Source: a phage. From it: a stretch of DNA of 48,980 bases. The stretch is taken from sequence record NC_105619.1; one strand, given 5' to 3'. This document shows, in pieces, positions 6,654-48,966 of the stretch. A program made the translations under genes and the position numbers. The stretch's first letter is position 1. Every line of letters begins with the position of its first letter. The notes beneath the pieces were generated by a model that was not told the origin of the DNA, made no database searches, and worked only from the letters and a program-made list of their open reading frames with translations.

Positions 6654-6691
6654 CACAAAAACACTTTGACGCTTTAACAAAAAGTGCTATT
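6647..6691 (-). promoter_or_regulatory. reverse-oriented copy of the TAGCA-N5-TGTTA promoter module (antisense to late genes)
   Basis: On minus strand AATAGCACTTTTTGTTAA + 22 nt + TATGAC (preceded by TGt). Confidence 0.35.
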
Positions 6692-10409: not shown

Positions 10410-10454
10410 ATCGTATCAACTTTGCACTATTCTCTTTTAACAAAAAGTGCTATT
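10410..10454 (-). promoter_or_regulatory. reverse-oriented copy of promoter module (antisense to major tail protein gene)
   Basis: Minus strand AATAGCACTTTTTGTTAAAA + 22 nt + TACGAT (TGa-TACGAT). Confidence 0.35.
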
Positions 10455-14378: not shown

Positions 14379-14392
14379 CGCCATATAACAAA

Positions 14393-14428
14393 AGCCCGCC
14401 TTGCGCGGGTTTTTTTGTAGCTGTAGAA
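14393..14428 (+). promoter_or_regulatory. terminator hairpin with embedded promoter (TTGCGC-N17-TAGAAT)
   Basis: CCCGC-CTTGC-GCGGG hairpin + T7 run; TTGCGC at 14400-14405, 17-nt spacer, TAGAAT at 14423-14428. Confidence 0.55.
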
Positions 14429-14457
14429 TGGTTGCAGGTAAACAAGAGGAAAAATCA

Positions 14458-15971: not shown

Positions 15972-16567
15972 ATGATGTAAAAGTAATCAAATTATCAGGT
16001 TCACTTGGAAGGCGCTTCGGCGTCTTTCACAGATTCGCCGTTGACTCTTACCCGGAAGCTATCCGGGCGCTATCCAGTCAGGTGGATGGATTCAAAGAAT
16101 ACATGCAAAGCGAGATAGGATCTCGTAGCAAGTTTGCAATATTTGTGGATGGCGTTAACGTTGGACACCATGAAGAGGAAAAATTCAGGTGCGCGAAAGA
16201 GATAAGAATCGTACCGATCCCTACTGGCTCTAAGACAGGAGGTCTATTCCAGGTTGTATTGGGCGCGGCAATAATGGTTGCAGCATTCTATACTGGCGGC
16301 GCGTCTCTGGCTTTAATGGGCACAATGTCCTCGTCTCTGTTTATGATGGGCGGCGCTATGGTGCTGGGCGGCGTGATGCAGATGATTTCACCGCAGCCGG
16401 GTGGCGCAAACTTTGAAGTTCAATCAAGCAAGAATAAACCTTCGTACGCGTTCGGCGGTGCTGTCAATACGACGGCGGCGGGATACCCTCTCCCGGTCCC
16501 GTATGGATATCGCGCCGGAGGTGGCGCAACTTTCTCAGCAGGTTCTTATGCCGAGGATATGAGTTAA
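15968..16567 (+). CDS. tail assembly protein (lambda gpI-like)
   Basis: Position after K-like gene; Gly/Ala-rich hydrophobic C-terminal region. Confidence 0.6.
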   Translation: MNDVKVIKLSGSLGRRFGVFHRFAVDSYPEAIRALSSQVDGFKEYMQSEIGSRSKFAIFVDGVNVGHHEEEKFRCAKEIRIVPIPTGSKTGGLFQVVLGAAIMVAAFYTGGASLALMGTMSSSLFMMGGAMVLGGVMQMISPQPGGANFEVQSSKNKPSYAFGGAVNTTAAGYPLPVPYGYRAGGGATFSAGSYAEDMS

Positions 16568-16572
16568 AATTA

Positions 16573-16608
16573 ACCCGCCTTGCGCGGGTTTTTTTTCGCC
16601 TGTATAAT
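16573..16608 (+). promoter_or_regulatory. terminator hairpin with embedded promoter (TTGCGC-N17-TATAAT)
   Basis: Identical hairpin CCCGCCTTGCGCGGG + T8; TTGCGC 16580-16585, 17-nt spacer, consensus TATAAT 16603-16608. Confidence 0.6.
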
Positions 16609-16644
16609 GAGTCCACCGATAAATAGCACAAAAAGGTAAACATC

Positions 16645-21311: not shown

Positions 21312-21337
21312 TTGTATGTCCTCGTTGTTAGTGTGAT

Positions 21338-21366
21338 TGCATTGTATGTCTCATTTACTTTTATTG
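21338..21366 (-). promoter_or_regulatory. sigma70-like promoter for cor operon (TTGCAA-N17-TACAAT on minus strand)
   Basis: Read on minus strand upstream of cor ATG. Confidence 0.5.
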
Positions 21367-21778
21367 CAATAGCACGATTACAATTTTTTCGTGTAACTGG
21401 TGTCTATTTTTGTAACCGGAAGTGGTGTTACAAAATCCACCCCATCCGACCGCAGAGGGATATGATAAAAACTCTATATAATATATATAGATAGATAATA
21501 TTTAATTTTAGCTTTATATATATAATTATTGTTGTGTAACAGTTGTCTATCGTGTAACTGGTGATTTGATTGATTCGTCAAATTTCTATCATATATGTTC
21601 AAAATTTAATCAATATGGATTCTACTTGTAGCTATCTCTGTATTTCTAAGAAAAAGCGGTTACAAGTATTACACAGTAGACATCACACAAAAATAGACTT
21701 AAGCCATTGATTCCGTTAATGCTGGTTGTAACTTGAGCGATATAGACACGCTATTACACATCAATTACATGTATCCGA

Positions 21779-21806
21779 TTGACTAAACGCTGTTAATGGC
21801 TATAAT
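21779..21806 (+). promoter_or_regulatory. near-consensus sigma70 promoter (TTGACT-N16-TATAAT) for recombination operon
   Basis: TTGACT 21779-21784, TATAAT 21801-21806, ~30 nt upstream of RBS AAGGAGA. Confidence 0.6.
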
Positions 21807-21837
21807 GGATTCATCGTAAACGAAGGAGATAAACGCA

Positions 21838-26868: not shown

Positions 26869-27321
26869 TTAACTAAAAATGCTATTGGTCGTCCCGATAT
26901 CTTCCTTCTTCACCACTCGCATAAACTTCTTGTTCTTGCATCGCTTCTCAAGGCACTTACCGTTACCGTCAAACTTGAGGTCGAATCGCAACCATGCCGC
27001 GCGGTATCCTTTACACCCCTGGCGACGGTAAGCGCGATGCGCAGCTTCAGCACCTTGCCATGAAATCATATTGCGTTCTTTCCAGCCCTGCACCGTCTGA
27101 TTGCTAACCTTCAGAGCCTTTGCGCAGGCCGCCGGGCCGCCGTAATATTCGATAAGGGCATCAAGTCTCGCTCGCAGTCCGGCGCGCGTTTCTTCTTTAT
27201 GAATATAGAACCCGCAACGCTGGCGAGGCTTTTTATCTTTACCGCGCCGTGTTCCGTTGTTACCATTGATGTGACGTTTATCGATTTCACCAGTTGATTC
27301 TGCGATACGTTGAATACTCAT
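26869..27321 (-). CDS. hypothetical basic protein with HTH-like segment
   Basis: ..AACAKALKVSNQTVQGWKERN.. resembles an HTH recognition helix; Lys/Arg-rich. Confidence 0.3.
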   Translation of the reverse strand: MSIQRIAESTGEIDKRHINGNNGTRRGKDKKPRQRCGFYIHKEETRAGLRARLDALIEYYGGPAACAKALKVSNQTVQGWKERNMISWQGAEAAHRAYRRQGCKGYRAAWLRFDLKFDGNGKCLEKRCKNKKFMRVVKKEDIGTTNSIFS

Positions 27322-30875: not shown

Positions 30876-30909
30876 TTGCTAAAAATACCCGGCGAAAGTC
30901 GGGTATAGT
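30868..30909 (+). promoter_or_regulatory. early promoter module
   Basis: AGCACTAATTGCTAAAAA + 22 nt (containing ACCCGGC-GAAA-GTCGGGT hairpin) + TATAGT. Confidence 0.5.
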
Positions 30910-32863: not shown

Positions 32864-32897
32864 TTGATAAAAACGCCCGAAGGGATTCGGGTATAGT
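32855..32897 (+). promoter_or_regulatory. early promoter module
   Basis: CGCACTAATTGATAAAAAC + 22 nt (CCCGAA-GGGA-TTCGGG hairpin) + TATAGT. Confidence 0.5.
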
Positions 32898-34862: not shown

Positions 34863-36431
34863 TTAACCCATCAGTCGAGGATTGATGAAAACAATATCAT
34901 CAATACGGCAAGTGTAGTTCATCTCTTCGAGCGTAATCAGAAGGCTGTCGATTCGCTCAGATACTTTCTGTTGACCGTTGAACGGCGTAACGTTCCGGCA
35001 CTTTGCAACAATACTATGAATAGGTGCGCGCCCTTTGTTCTTCTTTGCGATCTCAGTGATAACATCAATCAGCTTACGAGATTCAGCCTCATCACCAGCA
35101 TACCCGGCAGCGCTGGCAGACGACAGATAAGTTCTGGAAAGCTCATTGAAAATCATGATAGCTTCCTGCATTGTTTCAAGGTCAATCTCACGGTTGGAAC
35201 GGTTCGGTGATTCACCCTCCCAATTCTTGATCGTGTGTAGAACTGAAGCAATACGCAAAGCGTGCTTATCGAACTTGCCGAGATGACCGCGTAGCATTGA
35301 GTGAGAGTATTTCCCCCCTGCGGCGAAATCAGGCTCCATCGCCTGGCGTGCAAGGTTTAATTCACGCATAGCATTACGGCTCACAGAGAGAACAACGTTG
35401 TCCTCCTTCATGATGTTGTGCACTAGTCTGTAATATTTGCTAACCAGTCCGCGATCGACTTCTTTATACAGTGCATCACCATTTTCATCACAAAGAATAC
35501 GAGTACCTAAAAGCGGTTCCTCTCGAACCAGGAGGAAACGCTCAGATACACCGATACCGCGCTGGCCTGCGTCCATGATACCCTTGATTGTTTCATCCTG
35601 AGCAATTACGCAGATTGAACCGACAGGACACAGAGACAAGTTATTGTCCTGGTTTGAACGAGCAACCTCCATATGGTTTTTATCCCACGCCTTAAGGATA
35701 AGCTCACTGTTAGATTTCTTATCTGAACCGCCATACGTAAGCCCGAGCAATGTATTGATTGCCGTTGCCTCGTCAGATATTACGGAAAAGTGACCTTGCA
35801 CTGCCGCCACTTTCGCAAGACCTTCAGGTGTAGGATCTGATACCGCGAAAACAATATCAGCCATCTTCTTGATCTTCTCTTCCAGTTTTTCTTTGTCCTC
35901 GTACAGAGCCGCCGTAGTGTTGCCTTTAGGATCGTTCTTGATTTCCTTCTCAACCTGACGTAGCTGACTGGTTAAACGGATACGTTCCTTTTTGCGCTCT
36001 TCATTCAGTCGCTGAATCTCCGCACGCATAGGTGTAATCGCCGCTGAGTTAATCGCGGACTTACCTGTTGATGGTGGCTGGCTGATTACCATGTAAAGCG
36101 CTGTCGGCTGTTCCTCTCCGTGATATTGCACCCAAAACTTCCCGAGCATCGCTGCTGAGATGCAACCGATAAAATGAGCATACGCGGATGAAACCGGGAA
36201 CTGGACTGATTCAGCTTTTGCTTTTGCATATTCGAATACCAGGTTATCGCCACCTAACGAAATCAGAGGGAACTTATCGTTTCCGCTGTTGATATCGATC
36301 GGATCTTGCCAAAAAGAAACTGAATCCCCGTAACTGTTTTCACGAATTGCGATCGCCACCGGATTCACTCCAGTGCTATTTGCGATCTCAATAATTTGTT
36401 GGTAATTCAGTTTTGGCTTAATGTTAAACAT
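34863..36431 (-). CDS. hypothetical protein, possible P-loop-like ATPase
   Basis: Start at internal ATG (residue 22) with RBS AAGGAG; segment ..ISQPPSTGKSA.. loosely Walker-A-like. Confidence 0.45.
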   Translation of the reverse strand: MFNIKPKLNYQQIIEIANSTGVNPVAIAIRENSYGDSVSFWQDPIDINSGNDKFPLISLGGDNLVFEYAKAKAESVQFPVSSAYAHFIGCISAAMLGKFWVQYHGEEQPTALYMVISQPPSTGKSAINSAAITPMRAEIQRLNEERKKERIRLTSQLRQVEKEIKNDPKGNTTAALYEDKEKLEEKIKKMADIVFAVSDPTPEGLAKVAAVQGHFSVISDEATAINTLLGLTYGGSDKKSNSELILKAWDKNHMEVARSNQDNNLSLCPVGSICVIAQDETIKGIMDAGQRGIGVSERFLLVREEPLLGTRILCDENGDALYKEVDRGLVSKYYRLVHNIMKEDNVVLSVSRNAMRELNLARQAMEPDFAAGGKYSHSMLRGHLGKFDKHALRIASVLHTIKNWEGESPNRSNREIDLETMQEAIMIFNELSRTYLSSASAAGYAGDEAESRKLIDVITEIAKKNKGRAPIHSIVAKCRNVTPFNGQQKVSERIDSLLITLEEMNYTCRIDDIVFINPRLMG

Positions 36432-36460
36432 CACAATAAACTCCTTAGTTGACGGTGTGA

Positions 36461-36505
36461 ATGATACACCGCCAATGTTACACGCGTTTTGCAAAAAGTG
36501 CTATT
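36461..36505 (-). promoter_or_regulatory. early promoter module (minus strand)
   Basis: AATAGCACTTTTTGCAAAAC + 22 nt + TATCAT; arms GGTGT/ACACC flank -10. Confidence 0.5.
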
Positions 36506-39060: not shown

Positions 39061-39105
39061 ATTATGCCAAATCACACCGATCGAGTTTTAACAAAAAGTG
39101 CTATC
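39061..39105 (-). promoter_or_regulatory. early promoter module (minus strand)
   Basis: GATAGCACTTTTTGTTAAAAC + 22 nt + CATAAT; arms TCGAT/ATCGA flank -10. Confidence 0.5.
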
Positions 39106-39792
39106 CGCGATAGCTTTAAAAAATCCCCTGGGCGACAGAGATCGTATCAGCTTAGTTTTGGCAGACTTGCCGCCTAGCTTGCTGTGCTGTGCAGAGTACC
39201 CGTCAGGTAGGCTTACAGGTTTTCTCTCGGGCATGACAAAATCGTCAGAGGTCCAAAGGCAAGTTTTCTTCGGGTAAGCATCGCGCGGCGCAATATACAT
39301 CGGGAACCAGGGGTGTGAGTCATTCTCAGGAAGATAGCCGCCATACTCCCAGGGATTGAAAGTGTGATTTGGTTTTCTCCACACAGACGACAGGACGCTT
39401 ACCGGATTCTCAATGATGTAAGTCACGCCAAGGCTATCGCCAATGTTCGCGGCAATCCGGGCGGTGGCGGCAGCCTTCTCCTGGAATAACGGATCGCGTT
39501 CACGCTTTCTTGCGAAGTGAGCGGCACCACTAACAGCCAGGTCAGTGCACGACGGGAAGGCCATAATGAAATCCGGCTTGCCATACACGCCAGCGATAGC
39601 ATCACGCTCAAACGCTGCGTCAATGAACACGTTCACATACTCAATGTTCGGATGCTCCACTCGGGCATTGTACTTTGCATAATCCCCGTGATCGGCTCCG
39701 TCAAAGTTGAAGCACATCACCTTGTTACCTTGCTTAGCCAGTTCATGACCTGCAAGGCCGGAACCGTCGAATAGCGACCAGATTAATTTCAT
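39088..39792 (-). CDS. SAM-dependent DNA methyltransferase-like protein (C5-cytosine MTase-like motifs, compact)
   Basis: Motif-I-like SLFDGSGLAG, Cys-containing FPSCTD (cf. PCQ), ENP (cf. ENV); only 234 aa, no obvious target-recognition domain. Confidence 0.4.
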   Translation of the reverse strand: MKLIWSLFDGSGLAGHELAKQGNKVMCFNFDGADHGDYAKYNARVEHPNIEYVNVFIDAAFERDAIAGVYGKPDFIMAFPSCTDLAVSGAAHFARKRERDPLFQEKAAATARIAANIGDSLGVTYIIENPVSVLSSVWRKPNHTFNPWEYGGYLPENDSHPWFPMYIAPRDAYPKKTCLWTSDDFVMPERKPVSLPDGYSAQHSKLGGKSAKTKLIRSLSPRGFFKAIADSTFC

Positions 39793-39824
39793 TGCAAATA
39801 TCCTCTGATTGGTTGATGAGATGA

Positions 39825-39869
39825 ATCATACCCGATCGGCAGGGCTGATGTGTTGCAAAAAATGCTATT
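39825..39869 (-). promoter_or_regulatory. early promoter module (minus strand)
   Basis: AATAGCATTTTTTGCAACAC + 22 nt (palindrome CCGATCGG) + TATGAT. Confidence 0.5.
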
Positions 39870-40053
39870 CCAATAGTTGCTCATTATTCCACCAGCAATG
39901 GAATATCTGGAATAATTGCGATCCCGATTGATCTCGAATGATGAAACGTGATTATTGCATGGTGTGCAACAGTTGGTTGATTTGTTGCTGAGATTGCAAT
40001 GATTGTGAGAGGGAGGATTTAGTGTTACCCGGTTCGCCTGGTAGTCATCCCCA

Positions 40054-40075
40054 TTTTTAGCAAAAAGTGCTATCG
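40054..40075 (-). repeat. orphan copy of the box (GATAGCACTTTTTGCTAAAAA) without recognisable -10 at +22
   Basis: Read on minus strand within second AT-rich control region. Confidence 0.4.
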
Positions 40076-40399
40076 ATTACACTTTAACTTGTCACGATTG
40101 TAATATTTGTCTAGAATCGCCATTGTGACAAAATTACGCACTGTGACACCTCACAATATACATATAGATATATGTATATATATAATATATATAGTGTTTT
40201 TTTTATTTATATATATAGATAATTATATTGTAATGGGTGTGTATAGTTGTCTTACATTGTCTAGCGTACTGTTGGCATATTTCTATCTGCATGTTTATAT
40301 ATACAGTACTTTTTTGAGGGTCGTATATTTCTATATGGACTCTAGACAGCTAGACAAATGTTACACGGCTTAAAATCGGCTTGCAGGCATTGACAACTC

Positions 40400-40445
40400 T
40401 ACGTCGCGCTGTAACAATGGCAATTGTTGACACGTTATGACGCCA
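40400..40445 (+). promoter_or_regulatory. tandem sigma70-like promoters with perfect TTGACA -35 boxes upstream of first rightward early gene
   Basis: cattTTGACAactctacgtcgcgctgTAACAAT and aattgTTGACAcgttatgacgcc.. Confidence 0.4.
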
Positions 40446-40476
40446 TTTACACGCAAATAGACAAAGAGGATATATT

Positions 40477-40992
40477 ATGAGCAATACCAATCAGGAATTA
40501 AAAATCACCGACATGATTCGCCTAACCTGCGATGCGATGTACCGCGACAAAGGCATGAGCGAGTTCTCTTTCGTGGCTGATGATATGGCCCTGGAAGGAG
40601 CGCGCTTCTACTTCCGCAACCAGGATGTAAGCGATAGCGATCTTGAGTCTGCCGCTGCCGGATGGGTGGACCAGAACCAGGGCGAGGTAGAGAAGAGATT
40701 CAAGTCTGCTTTCATCACTCCGATCATTACCAGGCACTTTTGCAAGTACGGAAAGGTTGCAAAGGTGAAAGTGGGCCGGAATGACGCCGCAATTACGATG
40801 ATAACCGTTATCGTTACAGACGAAGAGTTTCCGGTGAAGAAGCGCCGCAGCCGGAAGAAAGTTAGCCTGGCCGACTGCCTGGATTCGTTCACGCCTGATA
40901 TTGATGATCTCGAAAAAGGTGATGTGACTGTAAGCACAGTGCGCGACCTGGTTCGCCAGATGAAAGCGCATATTGAGAAATGCGGACTGTAA
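40477..40992 (+). CDS. hypothetical early protein
   Basis: 171-aa ORF, RBS AAAGAGGA, first gene after control region. Confidence 0.5.
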   Translation: MSNTNQELKITDMIRLTCDAMYRDKGMSEFSFVADDMALEGARFYFRNQDVSDSDLESAAAGWVDQNQGEVEKRFKSAFITPIITRHFCKYGKVAKVKVGRNDAAITMITVIVTDEEFPVKKRRSRKKVSLADCLDSFTPDIDDLEKGDVTVSTVRDLVRQMKAHIEKCGL

Positions 40993-41265: not shown

Positions 41266-41305
41266 CACTTTTTGTTAAAACCGGATCGGGGTATCTTGAT
41301 ATAGT
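41261..41305 (+). promoter_or_regulatory. early promoter module
   Basis: AATAGCACTTTTTGTTAAAAC + 22 nt + TATAGT (TGa extended); arms GGGGTA/TACCCC flank -10. Confidence 0.55.
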
Positions 41306-41343
41306 TACCCCATCGAAACGAGATACCAATCAGAGGAATCACC

Positions 41344-42288: not shown

Positions 42289-42328
42289 CACTTTTTGTTA
42301 AAACGCGATCATGTGGTTGCGATATAGT
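42284..42328 (+). promoter_or_regulatory. early promoter module
   Basis: AATAGCACTTTTTGTTAAAAC + 22 nt + TATAGT; arms ATGTGGTT/AACCACAT flank -10. Confidence 0.55.
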
Positions 42329-42359
42329 AACCACATCGACAACGAACGAGGACGAGAAC

Positions 42360-43572: not shown

Positions 43573-43612
43573 CACGAATTGCTAAACCTTCCGCAAGGCC
43601 ATTTGATATAGT
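43568..43612 (+). promoter_or_regulatory. early promoter module
   Basis: GATAGCACGAATTGCTAAACC + 22 nt + TATAGT; arms AAGGCCA/TGGCCTT. Confidence 0.55.
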
Positions 43613-43652
43613 GGCCTTATTGAAGCATGGCAACCAATCAGAGGAATCAGCT

Positions 43653-45238: not shown

Positions 45239-45265
45239 AACCTATCAAGGGGAATGCGCTATGAT
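45221..45265 (+). promoter_or_regulatory. early promoter module
   Basis: AATAGCACGAATTGCTAAAAC + 22 nt + TATGAT; arms GGGGAAT/ATTCCCC. Confidence 0.55.
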
Positions 45266-45355
45266 TCCCCTACACCAACAAACGAGGAATCACTAATGAA
45301 ACACTTAATTTGCATTGAAACGCCTAACGATGAATACACTCTTCACGGAATATGA

Positions 45356-45742: not shown

Positions 45743-45785
45743 TAGCACGAATTGCTAAAACTTGCTCAAGGGCATTTGTTAGAAT
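45741..45785 (+). promoter_or_regulatory. early promoter module
   Basis: GATAGCACGAATTGCTAAAAC + 22 nt + TAGAAT (TGt extended); arms AAGGGCA/TGCCCTT. Confidence 0.55.
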
Positions 45786-45825
45786 GCCCTTCGTTGAGTT
45801 AAGCAACCAATCAGAGGAATAAATC

Positions 45826-48896: not shown

Positions 48897-48906
48897 TAAA
48901 CACTAA

Positions 48907-48966
48907 CCCGCTACGGCGGGTTTTTTTATGCCTGCAATATGGTAAAATAGCACTAAATGTTAAACG
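48907..48966 (+). promoter_or_regulatory. terminator hairpin (CCCGC-TACG-GCGGG + T7) followed by CAATAT/TAAAAT and a copy of the box, upstream of terminase small subunit
   Basis: Same hairpin arms as late modules but loop TACG; AATAGCACTAAATGTTAAAC at 48945-48966 then RBS. Confidence 0.45.

Follow-up and report, generated by a model that had tools for sequence, protein, structure and literature searches.

The genome of a T1-like phage (Tunavirus, Drexlerviridae; sequence record NC_105619.1; 48,980 nucleotides, hereafter the window) is complete in its record and opened at the terminase genes, with terS at 1-525 followed by terL and the portal gene. Within it, an AT-rich region of 684 bp (39793-40476; A+T content 63.6%, compared with 54.4% for the genome) separates the gene for a Dcm-like methylase, oriented leftward (39088-39792, minus strand), from a rightward gene (40477-40992, plus strand) that encodes a 171-residue protein of unassigned function; neither this protein nor those of the neighbouring small genes gave an informative match in Pfam, PHROG or NCBIfam. 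An earlier note, made from the sequence alone, had read the stretch as a control region between divergent gene blocks, and this was borne out by leftward promoters of a repeated "box" type and a rightward sigma-70-type promoter on its flanks. The composite consists of a known repeat element (the box), a location known, if not defined in sequence, as a genome end or packaging start (pac), and a previously undescribed pair of collinear origin-like modules, one of which lies here and the other in a second AT-rich region (21312-21837). In the comparisons below, the latter is region 1 and 39793-40476 is region 2. That region 2 as a whole is a composite cis-acting end region of the T1-like genome, made up of DNA sites and not of an RNA gene, stands in our judgment at about even probability. 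The 2.5 kb around it are 84-94% identical to the Tunavirus phages XJA18, phiD2-2, SA12KD, LeonhardEuler and IME18; for the intergenic part taken by itself, identity is 89-93% in 27 records and about 80% in the comparison with T1.

Two collinear AT-rich modules with shared repeats

The module in region 2 is built from short repeats set around an AT-rich core. Three copies of TGTAAY-N3-TGTCTA (hereafter site A) were found: A1 (40099-40113, plus strand; TGTAATATTTGTCTA), A2 (40229-40243, plus strand; TGTAATGGGTGTGTA, one mismatch), which directly abuts the core, and A3 (40343-40365, minus strand), which comprises TGTAACATTTGTCTA, read from 40365 to 40351, and an extra minus-strand TGTCTA (TAGACA on the plus strand, 40343-40348). 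Between A1 and the core lies the TGTKACAAAAT element (40124-40134, plus strand; TGTGACAAAAT), which includes the first of the TGTGACA direct repeats that the earlier note had placed at about 40110-40140; these repeats are present, but about 10 nt to the right (40124 and 40142), where they represent two of only three copies in the window, the second not being conserved in T1, ADB-2 or LHE71. The TA core (40157-40228), a proposed DNA-unwinding element, contains the 16-mer TATATAATATATATAG (40179-40194) and a run of eight T residues. Beyond A2, a conserved block (GCATGTTTATATATACAGTAC, 40289-40309) shows 92% identity to T1 between diverged flanks.

A module collinear with 40099-40418 is located between cor and recE (21392-21806, plus strand), with site A at 21392, TGTTACAAAAT at 21426, a core having the 16-mer at 21475, site A at 21535, an inverted site A at 21755-21769 (minus strand) and the recE promoter TTGACT-16-TATAAT at 21779-21806. 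Thus, both modules run, in identical orientation, from site A through TGTKACAAAAT (25-34 nt later), a core of about 90% A+T and an abutting site A to an inverted site A, followed 9-25 nt further on by a sigma-70 promoter. The counts of the shared elements are far above chance. With one mismatch allowed, TGTAAY-N3-TGTCTA matches six times in the window against 0.29 expected, and all six matches (21392 and 21535, plus strand; 21755-21769, minus strand; 40099 and 40229, plus strand; 40351-40365, minus strand) fall in the two AT-rich regions. TGTKACAAAAT has only two matches in the window, 21426 and 40124, at the same relative position in each region, and the 16-mer is exact at 21475 and 40179. 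TGTCTA and TGTAAC are enriched in the two regions 47-fold and 16-fold, respectively. Moreover, ATATATA/TATATAT occurs there in 20 copies and in the other 47.7 kb in none, a possible sign that such tracts are selected against in the rest of the genome.

The core had previously been described as a pure alternating TA tract at 40150-40250. An AT-rich tract does exist there, but its A+T content is 83% (90% at 40157-40235), and the longest alternating runs (40175-40184, 40185-40193, 40208-40217 and 40296-40303) extend over only 8-10 nt; the six longest strictly alternating TA runs of the window all lie in 39793-40476 or 21312-21837. The two cores (90-91% A+T) are the two lowest-GC 150-nt windows of the genome, and their counterparts in TLS rank first and third.

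The promoter at the right end of the region 2 module (40390-40418, plus strand) is of the sigma-70 early type, TTGACA-17-AACAAT with an upstream TG, and is followed by a ribosome-binding site (AAGAGG, 40463-40468) and the ATG at 40477. It scores 10/12, with a spacing within 16-18 nt. Since the promoter scan finds about as many sites in shuffled sequence, it is the position and conservation of this promoter that carry weight: the -35 hexamer at 40390 is kept in 10 of the 11 aligned phages, and in the records of SA12KD and SA30RD the matched region bears a promoter annotation. Two perfect TTGACA -35 boxes had been claimed ahead of gene 40477; both are present (40390 and 40427, together with TGTAACA at 40410), but only the one at 40390 has a -10 partner. 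Another rightward candidate, TTGTCA-17-TAGAAT at 40089, was given low weight, its -35 hexamer not being conserved in the T1 group.

The layout of the modules is kept in T1, IME347, SH6 and TLS, with repeats specific to each lineage, and T1 and IME347 keep it in region 1. In SH6, the right half of region 2 is non-homologous, yet site A, TGTTACAAAAT, the TA core and TTGACA are found at similar offsets. T1 uses GTGTTAATC in its region 2, with one copy on the left and three inverted copies on the right, and in IME347 a 46-nt block is common to the two regions. TLS, which belongs to another subfamily, carries TGTTCCA-N3-TGTTCAC to the left of the region 1 core and an inverted pair to the right, and the same words occur in its region 2, TGTTCAC and TGTTCCA being enriched 36-fold and 22-fold. 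Relative to T1, the TA core is 93% identical, compared with 48-55% for the repeat-bearing flanks; GACAAAATTAC of the 40124 element occurs also in T1 and IME347, and TTTATACAGTAC of the 40289-40309 block is kept in IME347.

Because the repeats vary between lineages that share a host and yet are common to both regions of each phage, their binding protein would be encoded by the phage. The shared site counts, the 16-mer, the identical order and orientation and these lineage-specific, phage-shared repeats all support the previous suggestion that one factor acts at both regions, and from such comparisons we consider it probable that the same phage-encoded factor would bind the two. Host proteins that organise or silence AT-rich DNA (IHF, Fis, H-NS, DnaA, LexA or CRP) might instead be the ligands, in keeping with the AT-rich composition, with TGTGACAAA, which is one mismatch from a DnaA box, with the LexA-box-like sequence at 40290-40309 and with TGTGA motifs that recall CRP sites. 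However, lineages with the same host differ in their repeats (TGTAAC/TGTCTA versus TGTTCAC/TGTTCCA), and neither the sequence nor the spacing of the DnaA-, CRP- and LexA-like matches is conserved in T1 or IME347; we regard binding by host proteins as improbable. Each of these sites was also rejected individually: the LexA candidate has ATGT instead of CTGT and a spacing not kept in IME347, TGTGA-N4-TCACA has the wrong spacing for CRP, and TGTGACAAA is not conserved in T1.

A mosaic breakpoint at 39801-39805 has the conserved promoter module on one side and variable leftward genes on the other. Together with a second breakpoint at 40073/40074, beyond both of which genes or sequences differ among phages, it could be taken to mean that the region is non-functional filler, that is, a decayed gene or a recombination scar at a mosaic junction. 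This explanation is extremely improbable in view of the sharp islands of 92-97% identity to T1 amid flanks of 26-60%, the retention of the architecture after non-homologous replacement in SH6 and across subfamilies, and motif counts well over chance. A remnant of a lost gene was rejected as well, as SA12KD_56 and pSf2_070 lie to the left of 39885, over the first box module, and not in the stretch free of open reading frames (ORFs) described below.

Box promoters, the orphan box and the ORF-free stretch

The leftward box is the published 21-nt T1/TLS repeat, ATAGCACnnnTTGnTAAAA. The window contains 15 copies at up to three mismatches, against 0.01 expected, and 22 copies that match at least 12 of 14 specified positions. 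As a 21-nt direct repeat, aaATAGCACnnnTTGnTAAAA, it was published in the reannotation of TLS and noted also for T1, Rtp and Rogue1 (PMC11447400), and that report leaves its function open between a stoperator, an enhancer and an UP-like element. The 22 copies found here agree with it in sequence, in being intergenic and in usually lying upstream of a gene in the direction of transcription; a fixed 22-nt distance to the -10 hexamer and a conserved orphan copy are additions to the box as described in the parts of the report consulted. A TATAGT-like -10 hexamer is found 22 nt after TTGnTA in 16 regular modules (counted by hand from the box matches, plus the copy at 39853-39868), with one of them at 23 nt. 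This spacing is too long for TTGnTA to serve as the -35 hexamer, and it would place the quasi-palindrome of the box, ATAGCA-N5-TGCTAA, near -42.

The module of the methylase gene (39825-39868, minus strand) is regular, consisting of the box ATAGCATTTTTTGCAA (39868 to 39853), a 22-nt spacer and the -10 hexamer TATGAT (39830 to 39825), after which come the leader AACCAATCAGAGGA and the ATG at 39792. Its box and flank are 95% identical to T1, and its spacer and leader 60%. A sigma-54 promoter was considered and rejected; the box resembles TGGCAC-N5-TTGC, but lacks the GG and has a spacing 2 nt short.

The second leftward box of the region, hereafter the orphan box (40055-40073, minus strand; ATAGCACTTTTTGCTAAAA), is perfect, matching ATAGCACnnnTTGnTAAA at 19 of 19 consensus and 14 of 14 specified positions. 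As had been recognised for a box at 40054-40075, it has no -10 hexamer at +22, where GAACCG stands instead; TAACAC appears only after a 30-nt spacer. The box also has no downstream gene: no leader, ribosome-binding site or start codon was found about 60-80 nt downstream, nor any leftward ORF of at least 20 residues before the next module. Nevertheless, this pseudo-module (40022-40080) shows 93-97% identity in each of the seven relatives, T1 among them, that were compared by segment, whereas its right flank is 45-59% identical in T1, ADB-2, LHE71 and Sso008. SH6 has the orphan box, as has IME347, a phage of another genus, in which it is perfect; it is absent from TLS. Judging from its conservation without a -10 hexamer across two genera, the orphan box is not decaying, and its probable role is that of a bare binding site for the factor that recognises the box. 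Homology to phiL, AV106, DELF2, SH6 and Chapo ends exactly at its right edge (40073/40074), and conserved boxes may be the linkers at which recombination brings about mosaic exchange. Its use as a rightward promoter by symmetry was rejected, TGTAAT being 4 nt out of the fixed register.

A candidate ORF of 12 codons (40011-40060, plus strand) runs into the orphan box; a Shine-Dalgarno-like GGGAGG (40011-40016) lies 5 nt ahead of the GTG at 40022, and the TAG (40058-40060) is inside the box. The arrangement of Shine-Dalgarno sequence and start codon recurs in T1, SH6 and IME347, where the ORF has 50 codons. In IME347 the peptide itself is not conserved, and the promoter scan revealed no rightward promoter upstream of the ORF.

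Several further features of the box family were noted. Many box promoters carry an inverted repeat of 6-9 bp around the -10 hexamer or immediately ahead of it (41286-41309, 42308-42333, 43593-43618, 45246-45270 and 45766-45790, listed without strand; 37485-37464 and 36470-36450 on the minus strand), with spacer hairpins at 30885-30906 and 32876-32891; no such stem accompanies the orphan box. The stems, such as GGGGTA..TACCCC, ATGTGGTT..AACCACAT and AAGGGCATT..AATGCCCTT, vary in sequence between promoters, which amounts to covariation among paralogues, and have no T-run after them. Shuffled sequences seldom yield any one of them (P ≤ 0.07) and reach a mean best stem of 4.0, against 5.5 here. 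Full-consensus boxes also occur at 6673-6690 and 10436-10453 (both minus strand) inside the rightward late structural block, opposing the surrounding genes, and one of the two has TACGAT at +22. A GC-rich terminator hairpin with a T-run is present in three copies (14386-14430, 16565-16609 and 48897-48941), directly followed by TGTAGAATG, TGTATAATG or TGCAATATG, and two of the three are succeeded by a box-like sequence (16623 and 48944, the latter just before terS). In the late units having this hairpin, the box is downstream of the -10 hexamer, not at -42.

To the left of the orphan box, 39885-40054 contains no ORF of at least 20 residues, in agreement with the earlier description of a stretch with only very short ORFs. 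It had been proposed that the orphan box drives a leftward small RNA of 150-200 nt, or a long leader, across 40054-39870, and the lack of ORFs, the 76-97% conservation of the stretch within the genus and the perfect box at its upstream end would all suit such a transcript. However, the proposal was not supported for 39870-40060 with respect to promoter, terminator, RNA stability, covariation or Rfam match. In addition to the missing -10 hexamer at the fixed +22 position, the scan listed no promoter-like site or intrinsic terminator between 39320 and 40088, the folding z-scores of the stretch were -0.88 (leftward strand) and -0.42, RNAalifold on eight phages gave 0 compensatory pairs (covariation term, +0.11), and no Rfam match was obtained within the region at E ≤ 1; moreover, any transcript would enter the next promoter module. 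The ORF-free stretch is very probably not a small RNA, and we consider a leftward transcript of the kind proposed highly improbable. The stretch coincides with the start of the T1 record and with the syntenic repeat zone that contains the start of the TLS record, the authors of each having put that start at the packaging end, and it reads as a DNA site.

At the left edge of this stretch, upstream of and overlapping the first box, is a cluster of two direct ATTCCA (39867 and 39886) followed by two inverted TGGAAT (39899 and 39908), spanning 39867-39913. These inverted repeats had been pointed out before, as had CTATT/AATAG (39865/39872), and both are present; in comparative alignment, which the earlier note had suggested, the ATTCCA/TGGAAT cluster proved to be conserved in all aligned Tunavirus phages and in IME347. 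The pattern suggests a separate conserved protein-binding site. Klebsiella phages (Webervirus-like; about 77% identity) match the region only in 39805-39917, which includes the cluster; SRT8 and IME347 match here as well.

A candidate packaging start region

A zone of GAT/GATT repeats with an imperfect palindrome (39919-40021, plus strand) occupies the ORF-free stretch and is proposed here as the pac recognition and first-cut region. GAT occurs at 39920, 39930, 39940 and 39950, in a 10-bp phase, two of the four being GATC, and the imperfect palindrome ATTGCA-N6-GCAAC-N13-GTTGC-N6-TGCAAT follows at 39954-40000. On the plus strand, GATT reaches its genome-wide maximum at 39923-40022, with six copies (mean, 0.69; sd, 0.83). 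In TLS, plus-strand GATT likewise peaks genome-wide, at positions 1-100 of its record.

The ends of several phage records fall in the same span. The T1 record ends in ...GTGATT and restarts with GTTGCATGG, and this junction aligns to 39953/39954 of the window; position 1 of the T1 record is thus 39954. The repeat_region annotated at 1-2800 in T1 (NC_005833) is read as the terminal redundancy starting at the packaging end. The records of JMPW1, JMPW2, phi2457T, FCWL1 and Chapo are cut at the T1 point, and others start elsewhere, at 40008 (Shfl1), 40022 (SH2) and 40042 (IME167 and Henu5_2); the record of IME347, which belongs to another genus, is opened 17 nt from the orphan box of that phage. 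In TLS, restriction digests were used to map pac, which was assigned to the record start (PMC11447400); this start falls in the syntenic non-coding region, within a zone rich in TGAT/GATT. From these record coordinates and the repeat density, we lean towards taking the ORF-free stretch at about 39919-40045, some 9 kb ahead of terS, as the region in which packaging starts.

Some points weigh against this assignment. The record starts of T1 and the IME phages may partly be convention; some of the starts in this span are set by convention, several records having been oriented on T1. The candidate ends are scattered over about 90 bp (39954-40042), and the exact assignment of pac in TLS rested on a weak resemblance to P22. 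Papers on ISF001, SH6, KanT1 and the IME phages give no terminus data.

With the known genome end of T1 and TLS, the proposed packaging start shares its position in a non-coding gap where leftward blocks of small genes meet rightward ones, about 9 kb ahead of terS; the difference is that the literature consulted defines no recognition sequence for a T1-type pac, for which the phased GAT/GATT repeats and the palindrome are proposed here. The pac site of P1 consists of TGATCA/G hexamers and is Dam-dependent. The zone described here resembles it in having repeated TGAT(C/G/T) elements, including GATC, in a phage with its own Dam-type methylase; however, the number and arrangement of the elements differ, and the corresponding zone of IME347 is without GATC.

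Replication origin or transcription control

Two features expected of an origin are found in the twin modules, namely, clustered repeats far above chance and an adjoining AT-rich, easily melted element. Inverted repeat sets around a meltable core, between divergent promoters and twice per genome, represent the layout of iteron-type origins. SPP1 and P4 (ori/crr) have two separate sites per genome, with common initiator-binding repeats beside an AT-rich stretch, and in the ori of Staphylococcus aureus pathogenicity islands (SaPI) and oriS/oriL of herpes simplex virus (HSV), repeat sets flank an AT-rich core, the HSV sites lying between divergent promoters. By analogy, the present modules would resemble SPP1 oriL/oriR and the P4, SaPI and HSV origins in their paired repeat sites, AT-rich core and divergent promoters; they differ in having no sequence homology to these origins, in offering candidate initiators only, and in the fixed orientation of both copies upstream of a sigma-70 promoter. 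The papers on TLS (PMC11447400) and SU57 report that no origin was found in T1-like phages. We take replication origins to be the most likely function of the twin modules, at a probability somewhat short of even.

Candidates for the proteins involved are encoded by the phage, which has a primase, a superfamily 2 (SF2) helicase and a Cro-like helix-turn-helix (HTH) protein. The last (150 residues; 26869-27321, minus strand), encoded at the start of the primase operon, contains a weak HTH of the Cro/YdaS type, matching Pfam P22_Cro at 4e-5, below threshold, and PHROG "transcriptional regulator". Its putative recognition helix is SNQTVQGW here and NLKTVWGW in TLS, and thus differs between the two phages as the site A repeats do, whereas the box does not. 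A DUF3987 "helicase" (YfjI-like; 34863-36494, minus strand) is a candidate for loading at the origin. Its AlphaFold model (pLDDT 87.9, pTM 0.86) has eukaryotic and archaeal MCM subunits as best fold matches in the PDB (Foldseek E 3e-5, TM 0.37), and its C-terminal segment, from H447-464 to E513-516 (H-strand-H-H-strand-strand), has a winged-helix-like order at the level of secondary structure only. Neither the Cro-like protein nor the helicase gave a significant match when its sequence was searched against the PDB.

A fuller scheme, which is more tentative than the origin function itself, can be put forward as follows. The modules at 21392-21769 and 40099-40365 would be the origins of T1-like phages, recognised by a site-specific phage protein and opened by the MCM-like DUF3987 helicase, and the second of them would be physically coupled to pac and the promoter-less box, so that early transcription and the starts of replication and packaging would be linked within 600 bp. 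Leftward, a regular box promoter would drive the methylase gene. The phased GAT/GATT repeats and the palindrome would be the recognition elements of terminase, which would introduce its first cut at them and package in the rightward direction, as the record starts suggest, and the promoter-less box (40055-40073) would be a bare binding site at the junction. The iteron/TA-core/inverted-iteron module at 40099-40365 and its twin would both bind one phage-encoded protein, negative supercoiling from the flanking divergent promoters would presumably aid melting of the 90% A+T core, and phage helicases and the primase would start replication at the melted core, the twin origins being used like SPP1 oriL/oriR. 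Finally, the sigma-70 promoter at 40390-40418 would allow early transcription of gene 40477 and the following genes by the host RNA polymerase.

Several observations count against the modules being origins bound by one initiator. Within T1, the region 2 repeats (GTGTTAATC) differ from those of region 1 (GTGTAAC). The MCM-like match is modest (TM 0.37), the initiator is represented by candidates only, and the readings on ends, replication and binding are based on sequence comparison. The core is conserved in its exact sequence, more than a simple unwinding element needs, and the same orientation of both modules upstream of a sigma-70 promoter would equally fit the role of an operator or an upstream activating sequence.

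Indeed, the modules might serve transcription alone, the repeats acting as operators or activator sites through which a phage regulator, perhaps the Cro-like protein of 26869-27321, would switch two early promoters of the host RNA polymerase (those of the recE operon and the gene 40477 block) and their divergent partners, with the TA core as a bending or supercoil-sensitive spacer and no origin function. Such control would explain why both modules stand in the same orientation directly upstream of near-consensus sigma-70 promoters, with the inverted site 9-25 nt from the -35 hexamer, and these promoters are among the few canonical ones in T1-like genomes (PMC11447400); a Cro/HTH-like protein whose putative recognition helix differs from that of TLS as the repeats do would be at hand as the regulator. 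However, the TA core is located 155-250 bp from the promoters, too far for an UP element, it is the most conserved part of the module, and inverted repeats flanking a highly meltable core are typical of origins. We therefore consider transcription control as the only function rather unlikely. Operator and origin functions are not mutually exclusive and could coexist in the modules that we tentatively regard as replication origins.

T1 is a classic phage and a notorious laboratory contaminant. According to the T1 literature consulted, the origin of replication has not been located, the recognition sequence of pac is undefined and the function of the 21-nt box is open. The AT-rich control region has now been resolved into mapped conserved elements, comprising a putative terminus at about 39954-40042, two candidate origins, a shared predicted binding motif and a bare box. 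If these assignments are true, they would help in engineering T1-like phages and in constructing vectors for packaging or transduction.

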